Shown: piece after piece, positions 47,593-60,400 of the stretch
Layout of the letters: every line of letters begins with the position of its first letter
Numbering within the stretch: position 1 is the stretch's first letter
Assembly (NCBI GenBank): GCA_963793305.1
Contig: CAWBZV010000009.1
Span: 1 to 64,000 of the forward strand
Source of the DNA: an uncultured Gemmatimonadales bacterium
GTDB lineage: Bacteria; Gemmatimonadota; Gemmatimonadetes; Gemmatimonadales; Gemmatimonadaceae
Direction: 5' to 3'
DNA length: 64,000 bases
The notes under the pieces: model-generated
The model's database searches: none
Seen by the model: only the letters and a program-made list of their open reading frames with translations
What the model was told of the DNA's origin: nothing
Made by a program: the position numbers and the translations under genes

Positions 47593-48798
47593 ATGCGGCG
47601 ATACCCCATTCTATATCTGGTCGCGCTCGCTCTGTTAGGGGCTTGCGCGAGCGGGCACTCGGCGACCGGGCCATCGGGGACCAGCCTCACGGTCGTGAGC
47701 GGCGACAGTCAGACCGGGACATTCGGCGCGGTACTCGGCGCACCGGTCGTCGTGCACGTTGCGCCAGGGACACCCGTTACATGGCAACCATCGACCGGGT
47801 CCGGCACGATCAGCGCGCCGGCGACGAGCGACTCCAATGGGTTGGTGCACGCGTCATGGACGCTCGGGCCGGAGTTCTTCGGTCAGTCTGTGTTGGTCAC
47901 TGCCAATGGCCAGTCGCTGACCGTTTATGCATGGGGTAATGGGAGTGGAGACCTCGGCGGACGGCAGGTCTTCCCGGCGGACAACGCCTGGAACGCCGAT
48001 ATTTCAAACGCTCCGGTTGACGCCAACTCGCCGACGCTGATCGCGAGCTGCGGCGCTTCGAGCTCGCTGCATCCGGATTTCGGCACGGTCTACAACGGCG
48101 CCCCGAACGGGATTCCCTATGTCGTCGTGCACGGGAATCAACCGCTCGTCCCGGTGAGTTTTCAGTACGCGAGCGAGAGCGACCCTGGACCGTATCCGGT
48201 GCCGCCGAACGCATCAGTCGAGGGTGGCCCGAGCGGCACTGGCGACCGGCATGTGCTCGTGCTGGATGCGGACGCCTGGAAGCTGTACGAGATGTGGGAT
48301 GCCACGCCGGTGGGGAGCGGGAGCTCCTGGACCGCCGGCTCCGGCGCGATCTTCGACCTCTCGTCGGACGCGCTGCGCCCGGCCGGCTGGACATCGGCCG
48401 ATGCCGCCGGGCTCCCGATCCTGCCGGGTCTCGTCTGCTACGACGAAGTCGTCATCCACGGCGCGATCACGCACGCGCTGCGGTTCACCTGTCCAGCGAC
48501 ACGCAAAGGCTACATCGCTCCCGCGCGGCACGAAGCGTCGAGCGACACCAGCTCGGCGCTCCCGCCAATGGGTATGCGCGTGCGACTCAAGGCCATGTCG
48601 CTCGCGTCGTTTCCTCCCCATGTACAGGTGATTCTGCGGGCGCTCCAGCAGTATGGGATGTTCGTGGCTGACAACGGCTCGGCGTTCTACGTGAGTGGCG
48701 CGCCTGATCCTCGATGGAGCGACGACGAATTGCACGCGATGACAGCGCTCCACGGCAGCGACTTCGAGGTCGTGCAGATGGGGCCCGTCACACCGTAG
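47593..48798 (+). CDS. Lipoprotein with Ig-like domain and conserved unknown domain
   Basis: Lipobox LGAC; VVSGDSQTG Ig-like; FPADNAWN, GDRHVLV, WTSADAAGLPI, YGMFVADNGS. Confidence 0.8.
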   Translation: MRRYPILYLVALALLGACASGHSATGPSGTSLTVVSGDSQTGTFGAVLGAPVVVHVAPGTPVTWQPSTGSGTISAPATSDSNGLVHASWTLGPEFFGQSVLVTANGQSLTVYAWGNGSGDLGGRQVFPADNAWNADISNAPVDANSPTLIASCGASSSLHPDFGTVYNGAPNGIPYVVVHGNQPLVPVSFQYASESDPGPYPVPPNASVEGGPSGTGDRHVLVLDADAWKLYEMWDATPVGSGSSWTAGSGAIFDLSSDALRPAGWTSADAAGLPILPGLVCYDEVVIHGAITHALRFTCPATRKGYIAPARHEASSDTSSALPPMGMRVRLKAMSLASFPPHVQVILRALQQYGMFVADNGSAFYVSGAPDPRWSDDELHAMTALHGSDFEVVQMGPVTP

Positions 48799-49432
48799 TG
48801 CCGGCGACGGCGGCGATGCCGGCGAGCGAGAACGTCGTGATGTGCTCGACCATCTCGTCGATCTGCGCTTCGGTGTGTGGCAACGTATCGCCGAAGGCGA
48901 TCGTGCGGAACTTGTCGGGACGACAGAACAAAAATTGCGAGTGGACGCTGATCGCGCAGCGGAGCACCCGTGGGTCATCGTCGGTGGTCGCCAGCAGCTC
49001 GGCCATGAGGCCACGGAGATAGCGCAGCCGCGGCTGGAACCCGTGCTCGACAATCCACTCCGTAGCCGCGGTCGGCTCGGCCATCTCGTGAATCATGAGG
49101 CGGAAGATCCACGAGCCCGGGTCGATGCTGATCAAGAGGCGCACGTGCATGGCGATGTAGTGCCGCAAGCGCTCCTCGGCCGTCGAGCCGGGACGCGCGT
49201 GCATCGTCACGTCGCTGTGCTTCCGCATTTCCTGCACGGCCAGCTCCAGCACCGCCATGTAGAGGCCGAACTTATCGCCGAAGTGATAGTTCACGGCGGC
49301 GAGGTTCGCCCCCGCCGCGCGCGCGATGTCGCGCACGGTCACCTTCGCGAACCCATGCTCGGCGAACATCCGGATGCCCGTGTCGAGCAGCCGCTGGCGC
49401 GTCTCCTGGCCGCGCGGGCTGGAGTCGCTCAC
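48788..49432 (-). CDS. TetR family regulator (CecR/DUF1956-like)
   Basis: TRQRLLDTG, VTVRDIARAAGANLAAVNYHFGDK, HEMAEPT, FSLAGI. Confidence 0.9.
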   Translation of the reverse strand: MSDSSPRGQETRQRLLDTGIRMFAEHGFAKVTVRDIARAAGANLAAVNYHFGDKFGLYMAVLELAVQEMRKHSDVTMHARPGSTAEERLRHYIAMHVRLLISIDPGSWIFRLMIHEMAEPTAATEWIVEHGFQPRLRYLRGLMAELLATTDDDPRVLRCAISVHSQFLFCRPDKFRTIAFGDTLPHTEAQIDEMVEHITTFSLAGIAAVAGTTV

Positions 49433-50550
49433 AGCGTCCGCCGAAAGAGCCGCGTGGCGATGGCCAGCGTGATCACGGTGAAGATCGCCAGGTACACGAG
49501 ATCCCCCCAGATCGCCTCAAACCCGGTGTTCTTGAGCAACAGGCACTTGAACGCGTGCACGCCATAGGTGAACGGATCGACGATGGCGAGGCCCTTCATC
49601 CACGTCGGGAACGCTTGCTGCGGATAGACGGCGCCGCTCGGAAACCAGAGGAGCGTATTGAGGAGGCCGAACATCGCCCGTGGAATGAGCGGGTCGCTCA
49701 TGCGGGCCATCAGCATGAACATCATGCTGACGAGCGCCATGGACGTCATCACGACCACGACGGCAAGTCTCACCAAACGCAAGGGATTAAACGGGTGAGG
49801 AATGCCGGCGATCAGCGACCCGACAGTGATGAGCACGAACCCCGCGATCACCGCCTTGATCGTACCGGAGATATTGAAGCCGAGGATCAGCTCTAGCTTG
49901 CTGATGGGCGTGACGAGGTATCCCTCGTGCAGGCCACGCGATTTGTCGTCGATGTAGATGATCCCGCCGCCGATCATGACCATGACGAAGATGGCCATGA
50001 CGGTGGTGCCGGCGAGGAGATACTGGATGTACGGGACGTACGGGTACACCTCCACGACATCCATCGAGGTCTGGGGCGGCACGCGACTGGCTGGCAGATC
50101 GGTTGCGCTGGAATCGTACGCCTGCACCATACCAGATACGCTTCCCTCGAGCGCACCGCTGGCGAACTGATCGGTGTTGTCTTCGATCAACGCGATCCGC
50201 GGATCGTCCTTGGCGAGCACCCGGCGAGAGTACCCGGGCGGAATCGTCAGGACCGCGCTCAGATGGCCGTTGCGCAGCGCCGTGAGCGCCGAGCCCTGGT
50301 CGTCGTAGGGCACCGCGTCGAAGGTGCGCGCGTTGGCCGCGACGGCGCCGGAGAGCTCGTGGAGCTTGACCGCCGGCACGCCGCGGTCTTGATCGACGAC
50401 ACCCAGCTTGAGGCCTTTGACCTTGCCGCCGAATGCGTAGCCCAGAACCACGAGCTGCACGATCGGCATGATGCAGGACATGACAATGAGCGCGGGGCTC
50501 TTGCTGAACCGCCGCAAGTCGCGCTCGACGAGTGCCCAGATGCGTTGCAT
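49429..50550 (-). CDS. ABC-2 type transporter permease
   Basis: VLGYAFG, GVVDQD, SGAVYP, DPFTY; six TMs. Confidence 0.9.
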   Translation of the reverse strand: MQRIWALVERDLRRFSKSPALIVMSCIMPIVQLVVLGYAFGGKVKGLKLGVVDQDRGVPAVKLHELSGAVAANARTFDAVPYDDQGSALTALRNGHLSAVLTIPPGYSRRVLAKDDPRIALIEDNTDQFASGALEGSVSGMVQAYDSSATDLPASRVPPQTSMDVVEVYPYVPYIQYLLAGTTVMAIFVMVMIGGGIIYIDDKSRGLHEGYLVTPISKLELILGFNISGTIKAVIAGFVLITVGSLIAGIPHPFNPLRLVRLAVVVVMTSMALVSMMFMLMARMSDPLIPRAMFGLLNTLLWFPSGAVYPQQAFPTWMKGLAIVDPFTYGVHAFKCLLLKNTGFEAIWGDLVYLAIFTVITLAIATRLFRRTL

Positions 50551-50551
50551 G

Positions 50552-51542
50552 CTAGCGTCTCATCGTGAACGGGCTATCCGCGGCCGTGGGCGCTTGGAGC
50601 TCATCGCGGAGTTGGCGGCCCGTGAAGTGGAGGAAAACGTCGTCGAGCGTGACGCTCGCGACACCGAGCGTTTGCACCGTCACGCCGTTGGCGTCTGCTG
50701 CTTCCAGTACGCCGCGCGTGGTCTCCGGGGCGTGATGGGTCGTGATGCGGAAGACGTGACCCTCGGTGACCACGTGATCCACACCCGGGATTCGGCCGAG
50801 TCGTGCTTCCCAATCGGCGGGCGCTTTGGCGAACGTCATCTCCAGTGTGTCGGCGCCAGCCACGCTTTCTTTCAGGTTGGTTGGCGTATCGAGCGCCGCG
50901 AGCTTGCCGTGATCGACAATGGCGATACGATCGCAGAGCTTGTCGGCTTCGTCCATGTAGTGTGTCGTGAGCAGAACGGTCAGGTCGCGATCGGCTTTGA
51001 TCTTGCGGAGCATCTCCCAGACTCCGGTGCGCGATACCGGGTCCAGCCCGGTCGTCGGCTCGTCGAGAAAGAAATATCTTGGGCTCATGCACGAGCCCCC
51101 GGGCAATCTCCACGCGGCGCCGCATGCCGCCTGACAGTTTCTTGACCGGTTGGTCGGCCCACTGCGTAAGCTCGACCGCCTCGAGCAGTTCGCCGATCAG
51201 ACGCTTGCGCTTCTCGCGTGCCACGCCGTACAGCTTGGCGAAGATGGTGAGATTCTCCCTCGGCGTCAGTTCCAAATCGCTGGTGAGTGCTTGTGGAATG
51301 ACGCCAATCGCGCGGCGCACATCGTCGGGAGACGTGGTGACATCCGCCCCCGCGATAATTGCCGTGCCTGATGTCGGAGGGATCAGCGTGACCATCATGC
51401 GAATCAACGTCGACTTGCCGGCGCCGTTCGGACCGAGCAGACCGAAGATCTCGCCCGGCTCGACGCTGAACGAGATGTGATCAACGGCCGTGAATGTGCC
51501 GAACGTCTTGGTGATCGCTCGAACGTCGACGGCGGCACTCAT
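50552..51542 (-). CDS. ABC transporter ATP-binding protein (DrrA-like), +1 frameshift near 51073
   Basis: [16 protein letters not shown], then [27 protein letters not shown] in the next frame. Confidence 0.92.
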
Positions 51543-52594
51543 GTGTGGGTGACCCGCGGAGGCAAAAGCACATAGGCGGTCATGCCGACGGCGAGCCGGC
51601 GGTCCTTGTTGTCGACGCGCACCCGAATCTCGAACGTCTTGATGTCGCGCTTGGACCGGCTGACATCACGTTGCGTCGCGAACCCCGCGTCGACGCCGCG
51701 ATAAATAACGACTCCCCGGCGCTCCTCCCCTGACGGAAGCCGGACCATGAGCGAGTCGCCGAGGCGCACGCGATCGATGTACGTCTCTTCAACGTCCCCG
51801 CGGATCCATAGTCCGTCGGGATTGATCAAGGTGACGATCGGCTGCCCCGCCGTGACGACCTCGCCGCTCCGAACGGCCCGAACATCGACAATACCGGCGA
51901 TGGGCGACCGGACCTCTGCATAAGCGAGCCGCACGTCGGCTTTCGCTTGCTGCGCGACCGCCGCGTCGCGCTCTTGTCGCGCCGCGCCGAGCTCGCTGCG
52001 CTTCATCGCGACCTGCTCGGATGCCGCGCGCGCCATCGCCAGGGCGGCGCGCTGAGCCTCGACTTGTTTGTCGGCCGCGTCGGCCCGGGCTTGGGCGACG
52101 TTGTAGGTGTTCTGCTGGGAGTCGAGCTCTTGCTTGGCGACGCCGCCCGTCTTGGCGAGCGCGACATACCGATCGAGCTGAACCTTGGCGTTGGCCAGGT
52201 TGGCCGCCGCTTCGGCTTGCTGGGCGACCGCGGCGGCCAGGAGGGCCTCGGCCTGCGTGATCTGATCGTCCGTCTGCATCTGCTGGAGCCGAAGCGACGC
52301 CTCGCTCTCCTGGACCTTCACCGAGTCCTGGGCGGCGCTGTGTGTGTAGTACGCCTGATCGGCGGCGAGCTCCAATGGGACGAGCTTGGCGACCAGCTGA
52401 TTGGGTGTGACCGAGTCGCCTTGGTTGACGAGCAGTTGGGAGATTTGACCGCCGACCTGAGGGCTCACGATGACGTCGTCAGTCGTCACGACGCCGGTGA
52501 GCACGAGGTCGGTGGATCGCGAGTTGATGACCCACGCAATGATAGCGACGAGGAGGAGCGAGGCAGCCCCGAGCGCGAGACGCTTACGTTTCAT
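51539..52594 (-). CDS. HlyD family periplasmic adaptor
   Basis: N-terminal TM, VSPQVGGQI, coiled coil, VRSPIAG, LAVGM. Confidence 0.92.
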   Translation of the reverse strand: MKRKRLALGAASLLLVAIIAWVINSRSTDLVLTGVVTTDDVIVSPQVGGQISQLLVNQGDSVTPNQLVAKLVPLELAADQAYYTHSAAQDSVKVQESEASLRLQQMQTDDQITQAEALLAAAVAQQAEAAANLANAKVQLDRYVALAKTGGVAKQELDSQQNTYNVAQARADAADKQVEAQRAALAMARAASEQVAMKRSELGAARQERDAAVAQQAKADVRLAYAEVRSPIAGIVDVRAVRSGEVVTAGQPIVTLINPDGLWIRGDVEETYIDRVRLGDSLMVRLPSGEERRGVVIYRGVDAGFATQRDVSRSKRDIKTFEIRVRVDNKDRRLAVGMTAYVLLPPRVTHT

Positions 52595-54123: not shown

Positions 54124-54252
54124 TCGGAGCTTATTAAGCGCGCGCTCATATTACAAACACGCGCACTCGATATGTCGCATTACGGCCGGTGTCTCACAAT
54201 GTGATAACAACCGGCTTGCATCGTGACCCCAACATAGCAAACATTGTGGCCC

Positions 54253-55525
54253 ATGCAGAGCCCGCCAGGTCCCATCACTCGGGGCGAACACCTCGCGTTT
54301 CTCGAGGTGCTCGGGTCCATGCGCGCGAACGACGCGCGGTGGACGCCGACGATGGCGGGCTTTGTCACCGTTCGCCTCGTCGACAAGTGGGCCGAGGCGT
54401 TGCACGGATGGCTGGCCCCGCGGCCGAGTGAAGTCGCGGCGGTGCGCGATGCGATCGACAAGGTCGCGGCCGGCCCGACGCGCAACGCGCTGACCGCGAT
54501 CGTCGATGCGATTACACAGTCCTGGGGGCGCCGACGATCCCAGGTGTCCGCGCGCGTGCTCTCGTATGCGGCCCTCCTGTCGGACGGCCGCGAGTGGGCG
54601 TTGTCGGCCGACATCTATCGGACGTTCCTCTCGCTCGCGTATCGAGACCGAGCGCGATCTCGAGTGCCACGCCTGGCATCGCATCGGCTGGTGCGAGCTG
54701 TGGCTCGGCCACTATCCCGAGGCCGAGACCGCGTTGTCATTGGCGCGCACGCAGTCCGAAGAGCTGGGTGACCGCTACGTGGAGCTCGCCGCCGAGCACG
54801 GACTGGCGCTGCTCGCGCTCCACCGCGGCAACCTTCCGGCCGCCGACGAGCGATTCGCCGCGGTGGTGACCTCGTGCGAGCAGCATCGGGCTCTGGTGCC
54901 GGCGCTGGCGGATGTGCTGGTCCTCGCGCTACACGATCAGGGCGTCGGAGCGATTTATCGTCGCGATTTCGATCGCGCGTTCGTGTTGCTGTCGCGGGCG
55001 TTGGATGAGGCGCGCACGCAGCAGCAGCGCGATCGCGTCCTGCTCGATCTGGCGTTGGGGTTCATGGAGATGGGACTGCTGGACACGGCTCGCCAGGCGT
55101 ACATGATCGTCGAGGTGACCGCGGACGATCCGACGCTGCGCTGGATCGCGTCGCTCAACTTGATGGATCTGGCGACGCGGACCGGCGCCGAGACGGTGTT
55201 CGAGCGTCACCGCCAGGCGGTGTCAAACGAACCGTTGACTCCGCGTCTCGCGGTCAACTACCACATCAATGTCGGCGAGGGGTATCGCCGGTTCGGCCGC
55301 GAACGGCAGGCGCGCCAGGCGTTCGACCGCGCCGTGGTGTTGGCGGAGCGCCACCAGTTGAACCGGGAATTACTGCAGGCCGAGGCCGCGCGAGATGCGG
55401 TTCAGCCACAGGCCACGCCGCAGAAGACGGAGCGAGCCGACGCAATCACGTTGACCGACGCCACGATCCGTGCGCAGCAGGTGATCGAGCACCTGGGCGC
55501 CGAGCTGGCCGGCGCCGGAGTGTGA
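54253..55525 (+). CDS. Tetratricopeptide-repeat protein, +1 frameshift near 54640
   Basis: ORF 54253 (HLAFLEVL, GFVTVRLVD) joins ORF ending 55525; TPR helices HRIGWC..LGHY.EA, GNLPAA, LHDQGV, LLDLAL..MEMG..DTARQAY, GEGYRRFG. Confidence 0.8.
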
Positions 55526-55552
55526 CTCCAGCGCCGCCATTGAGGGGTCGCC

Positions 55553-55726
55553 TCAGCAACCGCCGCTGGTGGCGGCCACGCCGCCGCAGGCGGGATGGAC
55601 CGCGGAAGTGGTCGTGTGGGTGGCCACGTGAGAGGCTGTGGCATCGGCTGGGGCAGTAGCTGAAGTACAGGCAGCGAGTGAAAGAGCAGCAATCGTAGCA
55701 AGCGCGAAGGAAAGACGACGGATCAT
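55553..55726 (-). CDS. Small lipoprotein/peptide precursor (57 aa) with Cys-bracketed C-terminal motif
   Basis: MIRRLSFALATIAALSLAAC-TSATAPADATASHVATHTTTSAVHPA-CGGVAATSGGC; GGAG RBS; lipobox LAAC. Confidence 0.8.
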   Translation of the reverse strand: MIRRLSFALATIAALSLAACTSATAPADATASHVATHTTTSAVHPACGGVAATSGGC

Positions 55727-55745
55727 ACAGGGCTCCAGACAATGG

Positions 55746-55798
55746 GTGAAGGATCTCAACCTTCACTGTGCGACATCGACCAGCCGAGGTCAATGTCG
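55746..55798. promoter_or_regulatory. Two adjacent inverted repeats between the peptide and AraC genes
   Basis: GTGAAGG-N7-CCTTCAC (55746-66); CGACATCGACC-N6-GGTCAATGTCG (55771-98). Confidence 0.5.
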
Positions 55799-55837: not shown

Positions 55838-56698
55838 ATGCCACATGAGACGCGTTTAAGAATCGTCTCGTTTCTGAGAGAGTTCTTATCCGCGTCGCTG
55901 CGTGTCGCGCTCGGCCCTCGACACGAGTTGCACGCCACGCACTCGGTTGACGAGCTCGACGACACGCTGCGCGTCATGGCCGCCGACATTGCGATCGTCG
56001 ACCCGGAGTTCGCGAGTCAGGCGCTCCTCGAACTGTTAGCGGTTCTCGACAAGCACGTATCAGTGCACGTCGTCAGTTACACGACGGTGTCACCGGCGGC
56101 CATGCGCGCCCAGATGCAGTTCGCGCTGCGCGGGCATCGGCACCTCGTGCTCATGGGATTCGACGACGGGCCGGCGCAGTTCCGCACCTACCTGGAAGAC
56201 CTGCGCGGCGACGCGCTCGGCGAGATTTTGTTGGCGCAGCTCCGCCCCGCGCTGGAGCGCCTGCCGACGCCAGTCTCGCGCGCGATAGAAGAGCTCTTTC
56301 GATCGCCCGCCACGGTCGAGAGCGTTCCAGCGCTCGCCCGGTTAGCCGGCGCACGCCACCGTCGACCCCTGCACGAAGCGTTGGCGCGCGCCGGCTGGCA
56401 GTCCGCCGGGACGCTCATTCGCGCCGCGCGGGTGGTGCGCGCGTACGCCTATCTCACGCAGGGCGACAACCGGGTACGCGACGTAGCCGTCAAGCTGGGT
56501 TACGCGACGTCGCGTGGGTTGGCCAACGAAGTCCGCGCCGTGTCGGGATTGCTGCCCTCGTCGCTCGGCGCCCTCACGCCGCAAGCCTTTCTCGCCCGGG
56601 TCGTCGCGGGCCTCGTGCGGCCGCCCGTCTGGGCGCCTCGGACGCCGGCCAGCAGCCTGCCCCTGGAGCGCGTGGTCCCGGAGCGGTTCGCCGACTGA
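55838..56698 (+). CDS. Receiver-like domain + AraC-type HTH regulator
   Basis: DIAIVDP, VVSYT in N-domain; VPALARLAG, RVVRAYAYL, VRDVAVKLGY in C-domain. Confidence 0.78.
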   Translation: MPHETRLRIVSFLREFLSASLRVALGPRHELHATHSVDELDDTLRVMAADIAIVDPEFASQALLELLAVLDKHVSVHVVSYTTVSPAAMRAQMQFALRGHRHLVLMGFDDGPAQFRTYLEDLRGDALGEILLAQLRPALERLPTPVSRAIEELFRSPATVESVPALARLAGARHRRPLHEALARAGWQSAGTLIRAARVVRAYAYLTQGDNRVRDVAVKLGYATSRGLANEVRAVSGLLPSSLGALTPQAFLARVVAGLVRPPVWAPRTPASSLPLERVVPERFAD

Positions 56699-59217: not shown

Positions 59218-59237
<20 letters not shown>

Positions 59238-60400
59238 ACAGCACGGCGAACACGACGAGGATCACCGCCGCGAAGCCGGCGGGAATAAGCCAAATGGTGT
59301 GCCAGTCGTGACCCGTGGGTGTCGTGAACGCCTGCACAATGTTTCCCGATAGCCACCCGCCGATAAACAGCCCGGCGCCTTGGGTGATCAAGGCCAGAAA
59401 CCCCTGCGCCGCTGCCCGTATCTGAATATCGGCTCGCTGGTCGACATAGATCTGCCCGGTCACGAAAAAGAAGTCATAGCAGACGCCGTGCAGCAGGATG
59501 CCGGCGTACAACATCCACACGAGCGGCCCGGTGTTGCCGTATGCGAAGAACGCATATCGCAGCGCCCAGGCGGCCATGCCGATCAAGAGGATGCGCTTGA
59601 CGCCGAGCCGGACGAGGAGCACCGGCAGGAGCAGCATGAAGCCGAGCTCGGACATCTGCCCGAAGCTCATTTTGCTCGCGGGTTCGCTGAGGCCGATCTC
59701 GTTCAGATAGAGGTTCGTGAACGCGTAATAGAACTGCAGCGGGATGCAGAGCAGAAACGACCCGACGATGAACGTGGCGAACGACCGATCGCCCAGCAGC
59801 TTGAGCGCATCGACCCCGAGGAACATCCCGGATGCGAAGCGCCTTGCCGGCCGCGTGCGGCGGCGTGTGCGGCAACAGGAACGAGTAGAGTCCGAGGACG
59901 ATCGATGCGCCCGCCGCGATCTCGAGCGGCACAACGGTGGGCTCCACGTGCAGCCGGCCCACGAGAAGCCCGGCGACGATCCAGCCGATCGTGCCCAGTG
60001 CGCGGACCGCGGGGAACTCTCGCGCCGGCTCTTGCATGTGGTCGAATGACAGGGAGTTGGTGAGCGCCAGCGTCGGCATGTAGCAGAGCGCGTAGGCGAC
60101 GAGCAGCGGGTAGAACGCGCCGAACGTGACGGCGCGCGACGCGGCGTACATCAAGAGCCCGCCGGCAAGATGGAGCACGGCCAGCGCCCGCTCCGTCGCC
60201 AGGAAGCGGTCGGCGATCATCCCGACGAAGAACGGCGAGATCATCGCGGCGAGCGCCGTCGCGCCGTACGCGAGACCGATCTGGGTGCCCGAGAACTTGA
60301 GGGTCTGGCCCAGATACGTGCCCATGGTCACGAACCAGGCGCCCCAGACGAAGTACTGCAAGAACATCATGGCCGAGAGCTTCACGCGGACGTTGCTCAT
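59218..60400 (-). CDS. Nucleoside:H+ symporter (NupG/XapB-like MFS), +1 frameshift near 59821
   Basis: [31 protein letters not shown]; then [23 protein letters not shown]. Confidence 0.92.

Follow-up and report, generated by a model that had tools for sequence, protein, structure and literature searches.

In the agr system of Staphylococcus the signal is a thiolactone made by AgrB and the receptor is a membrane histidine kinase, and in the enterococcal cCF10 and cAD1 systems the signal derives from the signal peptide by cleavage. RRNPP-type peptide signalling is presented as a Firmicute trait in the cited sections of two sources (PMC10075063, PMC9765709). In the first of them, the signature as set out in its cited part has five points: a pro-peptide of 10-100 aa, a Sec signal, a receptor of 250-500 aa, TPRs and adjacent genes (PMC10075063). 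SPII precursors represent 211 of 2,734 in RRNPPA according to the cited part of the second (PMC9765709), and a conserved groove Asn of RRNPP receptors binds the peptide backbone, as stated in excerpts of two further papers (PMC4794775, PMC11343458). The main text of a 2025 structural phylogeny of RRNPPA contains, by term search, neither "Gemmatimonad" nor "Gram-negative" (PMC12700828). A plant-CLE-like peptide reported from a Gemmatimonadetes bacterium, as given in the cited part of PMC8618561, was considered and set aside, being unrelated in sequence to the peptide studied here.

Here we analysed a small lipoprotein gene and its surroundings in a window of 64,000 nucleotides, this term denoting the whole stretch of DNA under study. 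Its best reading is, in our opinion, a Rap-Phr-like peptide signalling cassette in Gemmatimonadaceae and not a RiPP locus. All five points of the RRNPP signature were found, that is, a precursor of 57 aa, much like its relatives in length, a predicted Sec signal, a receptor of 427 aa (in the relatives G001 and G004), Pfam TPRs and gene adjacency (69/74 loci), bearing in mind that SPII export counts for this signature only at the "relaxed" level in the part of the source cited (PMC10075063). No description of the cassette was found in the literature searched, the coverage of which leaves out most subscription journals and bioRxiv supplements.

The lipopeptide gene and its cassette

The pro-peptide gene is on the minus strand at positions 55553..55726, with its ATG at 55726 and its stop at 55555-55553, and a GGAG Shine-Dalgarno-like site (55733..55736, minus strand) is located 6 nt upstream of the ATG. 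Words of this type precede the peptide gene in 62 of 66 loci, as counted with a loose pattern and without a control. In the ORF reading, the frame on the plus strand across 55553-55726 is interrupted by stops. Orthologues are in the same position in G001, G003, G004 and G005, and they are 93% identical in G001 and 88% in G004. Compared to G001, seven codons differ synonymously and four non-synonymously, three of these four within the ring. Since the orthologues keep the frame and the changes relative to G001 are mainly synonymous, the ORF is more than a chance one, and it is confirmed as a real gene on the minus strand.

Three parts can be distinguished in the product. The first is a Sec/SPII signal peptide (55667..55726, minus strand) with a basic N-region, a hydrophobic core and the lipobox L-A-A-C20, Cys20 being encoded at 55669-55667; the lipobox Ala-Cys pair is invariant in all the 27 aligned peptides. 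The second is a linker (55589..55666, minus strand) with a conserved C-x(3)-T-x-P start, in which Pro26 is invariant and Thr24 nearly so in the same 27 peptides, followed by a variable low-complexity spacer. The third is the Cys47-Cys57 ring (55556..55588, minus strand), a candidate mature signal in view of the paired-cysteine rule, the modelled interface and the allele switching reported below. The linker DNA is 99% identical to that of G001 and the ring is divergent. An earlier note on this DNA had described a 57-aa lipoprotein with a lipobox Cys, a 38-aa mature part and exactly two more Cys that flank the last 11 residues, with HPA just before them. This description was entirely borne out, the Cys being residues 20, 47 and 57.

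The same note had remarked that the 5' half of the gene has many T/A-ending codons, unlike the neighbouring genes. In fact, G or C occupies the third position in 11 of 29 codons of the 5' half and in 23 of 28 codons of the 3' half, the figure for three neighbouring genes being 79-85%. Across the 69 members of the family, third-position GC is 76% in the signal part and 77% in the mature part, hence the codon bias is specific to this lineage and is no family trait. We considered T/A-ending codons and the HPA motif as possible family signals and rejected both, given the even third-position GC and the presence of HPA in only 2 of the 50 two-Cys peptides.

Searches with the lipopeptide against Pfam and NCBIfam gave only lipobox matches below the cut-off, and its best matches in the ESM Atlas (0.85) are unnamed proteins, to be taken as leads only. 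A sigma-70-like site at 55750-55722 was set aside as it overlaps the start codon. Two contigs of related strains from RNA libraries (X15, 55497-55707; X16, 55479-55707) were discounted as a proof of expression, since contigs do not prove transcription and may derive from DNA. Long lipoproteins encoded at many loci of the source genome (G000) often begin with C-x(3-4)-T-x-P after the lipobox, a start that is perhaps a lineage-specific sorting signal.

The lipopeptide gene is the middle one of three, between a convergent TPR gene and a divergent gene for a receiver-AraC regulator. TPR protein matches were found in 79 of 151 genomes of the family, a tally that includes four unpublished genomes, and profile matches in 82 of 201 genomes of the phylum (three unpublished ones included), mostly in two families of one order. 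For the locus counts we fetched 80 TPR loci and dropped six (three from unpublished genomes, three from repeat genomes), so that 74 published genomes were represented by one locus each. A convergent lipopeptide was present at 69 of the 74 loci, 27 of the counted peptides having seeded the peptide profile, and a divergent AraC gene at 66 of these 69, the other three having none within the locus. As for the five loci without a convergent peptide, one is at a contig edge, two have an upstream peptide on the same strand and two have none at all. A profile search of 1.84 billion representatives returned 603 receptor clusters (50% identity, E up to 1e-30), counted irrespective of host.

The source genome encodes 22 TPR paralogues. 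Eleven of them adjoin a peptide gene, which is convergent in 10 cases and upstream in one, and no two of these peptides have the same tail; the other 11 have no peptide hit. Six adjoin an AraC gene and 16 do not. Eleven of the 12 short peptide hits are within 170 bp of a TPR gene.

Several loci deserve mention on their own account. In most of the sampled family genomes (L140-L154) a small receiver gene follows the core cassette, and in 13 of 21 regions rho is downstream of the cassette. At L049:4236-5600 (G000 C5 near 654.6 kb) a TPR-AraC pair without a peptide hit precedes genes for PqqD, Transglut_core3 and GATase, a combination that characterises lasso-peptide clusters, and these genes are a candidate target of the signalling system. 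At L042:3342-3965 (G000 C3 near 1.333 Mb) one TPR paralogue converges with the gene of a longer lipoprotein, in which an internal Gly-rich loop with two Cys precedes a weak cupredoxin-like domain, either a real fusion or the result of a frameshift. An orphan ring peptide at L058:2799-2930 (G000 C3:753798-753929) is 34 kb from any TPR gene of the family and adjoins an OmpR-type response regulator. In the window, the genes at 48788-52594 (TetR/CecR-type regulator, ABC-2 permease, ATPase and HlyD protein) form an ordinary efflux operon outside the conserved neighbours of the cassette.

Paired cysteines, candidate receptor and co-switching

Beyond the lipobox Cys, exactly two Cys were counted in 50 of the 69 peptides, none in 19 and an odd number in none. 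With cysteines placed at random, about 33 odd counts would be expected (at least 16 in each of 20,000 draws), with the caution that related peptides are not independent. In two-Cys members the ring cysteines are spaced by 6-11 residues around a variable interior rich in Gly, Ser and Thr, and the residue before the ring is also variable (Asp in 15 of 50). The tails are short and nearly free of aromatic or cationic residues. The ring is optional, 19 of the 69 peptides being linear; Cys-free members (L054, L102, L110, L120, L134) often have tandem tail repeats, like duplicated Phr pheromones. Thus, of the C-terminal motif that the earlier note proposed to look for in homologues, the two-Cys Gly/Ser/Thr-rich loop is conserved, and neither the exact ring sequence nor HPA is.

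The source genome has Lgt and LspA genes, a DsbA-like gene and a VKOR gene side by side, and genes for two family-5 peptide-binding proteins. Given this gene content, lipidation, disulfide formation and uptake are possible. The alternatives offered earlier for the peptide, a disulfide-cyclised signal or a RiPP core, had different outcomes. The former gains support from the cysteines being either paired or absent in the 69 peptides, from the DsbA-like and VKOR genes and from a ring that co-varies with the TPR protein and is modelled in it, the disulfide itself being a prediction. The latter is disfavoured: neither a RiPP maturase or other modifying enzyme nor an RRE was found in the 17 window ORFs scanned (47.2-63.8 kb) or among the scanned conserved neighbours of 20 related loci.

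The candidate receptor is a cytoplasmic TPR protein of about 425 aa, encoded on the plus strand at 54253..55525, the stop of which is separated by 27 nt from that of the peptide gene. Pfam TPR_2 and TPR_12 are above the cut-off, and no HTH match was obtained in Pfam and NCBIfam scans. An extra base at 54643 breaks the frame in the source assembly. The gene is intact in G001, G004 and G005 (an ORF of 427 aa in G001 and G004), and the extra base is absent from the near-identical contigs X1 and X2 and from the related X16; the public contig X1 spans the whole stretch with 15 differing letters in 2601. A true inactivation is therefore disfavoured, and the extra base is most likely an assembly error. 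Frameshifts also affect, in the window, an ABC ATPase (50601-51542, split near 51.1 kb) and a nucleoside:H+ symporter of the MFS (59218-60400, near 59.9 kb), and several TPR paralogues are split in the same way, so that the source assembly seems to carry indel errors.

The model of the G001 copy is an all-helical superhelix (pLDDT 91). Its best fold neighbour is LGN (Z 24.9, rmsd 4.0, 292 aligned), followed by Pins and then by Rap of pLS20 (Z 21.7, rmsd 7.4, 320 aligned), the last match covering model residues 32-371 and thus including the N-terminus. RapI, RapH and NprR are further neighbours among many generic TPRs, the hits of the Rap-Phr (RRNPP) kind being entries 6t3h, 4i1a, 3q15 and 8rte. 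By sequence, the protein resembles LGN (E 1e-11), RapJ (E 8.7e-5) and NprR (E 0.004-0.005). Some TPR paralogues in the same genus (L047, L050, L056, L057) have an N-terminal extension with the Cys/His motif C-x-G-P-x-x-H-x-W...CC-x-G, possibly a metal-binding one.

Compared to G001 and G004, a specificity block including the TPR repeats, the intergenic spacer and the peptide ring (54701..55588) is swapped, as delimited by a drop in DNA identity. Precisely, identity is 96% in the N-terminal part of the TPR gene, 70% in the repeats, 52% in the spacer and 72% in the ring, and it is 90-99% in the linker and signal and 89-96% in the AraC gene. The constant flanks around the block are hence the output end of the receptor and the export signal. 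We then considered 37 convergent cassettes of six congeneric genomes, from which we obtained 18 pairs (3 genomes x 6 loci) with the N-terminal part of the TPR gene at least 94% identical. In the nine pairs with the same tail the TPR repeat part was at least 94.4% identical, and in the nine pairs with different tails it was at most 81.5% identical. The tail was switched at four of the six loci, and in seven of the nine switched pairs the signal peptide remained 90-98% identical while the C-terminal tail differed. Contig X16, from an unrelated run, has yet another allele, in which 647 letters are replaced in the middle of the TPR gene and the ring is changed as well. Co-switching could in part be hitch-hiking, pocket and ring being adjacent, and the 18 pairs represent only 6 loci. 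Due to the tail-to-tail gene order, which puts the pocket beside the ring, one recombination would swap signal specificity.

We also modelled the complex between the TPR piece of the window and peptide residues 28-57. The three scores were 0.69, 0.51 and 0.69 and the best of three controls was 0.02, to be read against a mark reached by 116 of 157 solved pairs and by 2 of 215 mismatched ones, which is approximate in this case as our own alignments were used. The runs share at least 56% of contacts; the partner has a pLDDT of at least 45 and the fold of the peptide itself is uncertain. In these models ring residues 48-56 dock in the TPR groove, and the confident contacts are made by the ring interior and not by its Cys, with TPR residues Arg131, Asn172, Asp130 and Asp135. 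Arg131 and Asn172 are invariant in 28 of 28 rows. Since solved TPR-peptide complexes exist, the pass may reflect likeness only. Alleles do not clearly differ more often at the modelled contact positions than elsewhere (13/32 vs 50/165 for G001; 9/32 vs 59/165 for G005).

The receiver-AraC regulator and candidate operator boxes

The third gene (55838..56698, plus strand), divergent from the peptide gene, encodes a receiver-like domain and an AraC HTH, with Pfam HTH_18 below the cut-off and AdpA matched at E 4e-11. The N-terminal half has five beta-alpha units. A canonical response regulator has a phospho-acceptor Asp, a Thr, an acidic pocket and a Lys. In 16 sequences, Asp55 is invariant and Thr82 nearly so, there is no acidic pair after strand 1 and the position of the Lys varies; the domain is possibly a pseudo-receiver. 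A Foldseek search with the model gave nothing at E 0.001, the weak rows being AraC HTHs and receiver proteins. Among 61 genomes of the class, the AraC profile matched nothing at 1e-30 in families f4, f6, f7, f8, f9 and f13.

AraC proteins typically have tandem half-sites spaced by two turns. In the region separating the peptide gene from the AraC gene, a tandem box with a TTTT-NN-GACA core and a spacing of 20-21 bp was found at 56 of 66 loci (54 at 21 bp), the matrix having been trained on these same intergenic regions and 20 shuffled sets having given 0-2. The same matrix gave 25 strand-hits upstream of the TPR gene in 65 untrained regions, 20 of them at 21-22 bp. The window locus, with its clade, is an exception: the region from the peptide gene to the AraC gene has no tandem box, and its place is taken by an 11-bp inverted repeat (55771..55798), with one mismatch in the window and the pairing base in X1, X2 and X16. 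Two weak half-sites of the family box (PWM 9.1 and 6.3) are located upstream of the TPR gene (54172..54203, minus strand), 17 bp apart and not 21. A genome-wide scan returned 11 pairs of boxes, none of them within 30 kb of a TPR paralogue on the contigs holding one.

Signalling model, alternatives and known systems

We give a probability of roughly two in three to the reading in which the lipopeptide is the pro-peptide of a three-gene signalling cassette working like Bacillus Rap-Phr, through export, ring formation, release, re-import, TPR binding, AraC control and feedback. Precisely, the precursor would leave via Sec, receive its lipid at Cys20 and be processed by LspA, as suggested by the lipobox and by the enzymes present, and Cys47 and Cys57 would be oxidised outside the cytoplasm into a protease-resistant ring, as the paired-cysteine rule suggests. 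A general protease may free the C-terminal tail, which would probably be re-imported via an Opp/Dpp transporter, and the tail would bind the groove of the convergent TPR protein, with which it is observed to co-vary. The TPR protein, having no DNA-binding domain, would control the receiver-AraC protein by contact via its N-terminal helical domain, in agreement with linkage and analogy; as for the sign of control, our guess is that the TPR protein inhibits and the peptide relieves. Finally, the AraC protein would bind tandem boxes 21 bp apart, such as those seen in relatives, in the promoters of the peptide and TPR genes, so that the cassette would regulate itself by feedback.

Linkage, co-switching, the complex model, the groove Asn, the Rap fold neighbours and the tandem boxes support this reading. 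Against it weigh the barriers on the way from export to a receptor in the cytoplasm, namely a lipid anchor and two membranes, and the lack of a protease or importer in the conserved surroundings of 20 related loci. No cut site is evident, as the position preceding the ring varies, and a disulfide is probably reduced in the cytoplasm. Also to be counted against it are LGN and Pins, which outrank Rap by sequence and fold, the missing tandem box of the window, the 11 of 22 TPR paralogues without a peptide and the 16 that do not adjoin an AraC gene.

In an unlikely variant, receptor and ligand are the same and there is no free diffusion, the lipidated peptide being passed on by outer-membrane vesicles or contact, or else taken back by the cell from its own periplasm to report on the envelope or on redox state. 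The invariant lipobox (27/27), the missing conserved cut site and linked protease, and a C-x(3)-T-x-P start that also opens ordinary long lipoproteins and may be a general sorting signal would all agree with it. However, the anchor must still be lost before the cytoplasmic groove is reached, and allele switching between near-identical genomes, together with 11 tails in one genome, fits cell discrimination better than self-sensing. The uptake problem disappears, with no re-import at all, if it is precursor still awaiting export that binds the cytoplasmic TPR protein, as a readout of Sec/Lgt capacity. Although the 19 linear tails and an interface at residues 48-56, not at the Cys, are compatible with such an export monitor, the strict pairing of Cys (no odd count in 69) implies that an exported form with oxidised Cys is under selection, and swappable alleles would be needless, which makes it quite improbable. 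We think even less of a reading in which the peptide is antimicrobial or RiPP-like and the TPR protein confers the cognate immunity: toxin-immunity pairs co-switch too and some small lipoproteins, for instance colicin lysis proteins, show a weak likeness (0.83, a lead only), but no maturase is nearby, the tails are short, Gly/Ser/Thr-rich and almost without aromatic or cationic residues, and the link to a regulator with operator-like boxes is fixed. An ordinary small structural lipoprotein with incidental neighbours, as lipobox-level matches below the cut-off might suggest, can practically be dismissed in view of the linkage at 69/74 loci, the 11 co-duplications in one genome and the co-switching.

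Returning to the Rap-Phr-like reading, a lipoprotein with a ring co-varying with the binding region of a receptor suggests that a Gram-negative group uses peptide signals of a type so far described in Gram-positive bacteria. We lean, with less assurance than for the cassette itself, towards a broader view in which Gemmatimonadota would have a multi-channel, cytoplasmically sensed peptide quorum sensing: tethered disulfide rings would be released, cross two membranes and switch TPR-AraC pairs, an exchangeable pocket-plus-ring module would generate new dialects by single recombination, and up to 11 channels would exist per genome. If true, a version of this signalling across a Gram-negative phylum would widen the search space for cell-to-cell peptide signalling. 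The proposed ligand, receptor, regulator and operator are all named and therefore testable with synthetic peptides and an E. coli reporter, with no need of host culture. Specificity controls are already available in the natural swapped alleles, which may also serve synthetic biology as orthogonal channels.

As for the known systems, agr shares with the cassette a small cyclic signal, predicted as such in the latter, and a hypervariable block that joins the signal and the sensing part of the receptor and sets the specificity groups, but neither AgrB nor a membrane sensor is part of the cassette. The enterococcal cCF10/cAD1 signals with PrgX likewise have a lipoprotein precursor and a cytoplasmic TPR-like receptor; in contrast, the signal peptide of the cassette is constant in most switched pairs and it is the C-terminal tail that changes. 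LGN and Pins, the best sequence and fold match, are peptide-binding superhelices, but they are eukaryotic polarity scaffolds and indicate a generic peptide-binding TPR fold only. Since the LGN match (1e-11) is stronger than that of RapJ (8.7e-5), we do not claim common descent with RRNPP, and the cassette, which by analogy would work like Rap-Phr, is not filed as an RRNPP member.

The closest likeness is with Rap-Phr of Bacillus, plasmid pLS20 and phages. In both cases a small pro-peptide with a Sec signal is beside a TPR receptor of 250-500 aa with a conserved groove Asn; paralogues are many, with orphans among them, and the signal, a candidate one in the cassette, is C-terminal and sometimes repeated. 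The TPR protein of the cassette, with no HTH match and an all-helical N-terminus in the model, may also share the N-terminal helical domain of Rap. Rap proteins bind or dephosphorylate a response regulator, and the corresponding observation for the cassette is the linkage to the receiver-AraC gene. The cassette differs from Rap-Phr in its diderm host, in the lipobox present in all the 69 peptides, in the disulfide-type ring predicted in 50 of them, and in its tail-to-tail genes with a dedicated receiver-AraC partner and tandem boxes.
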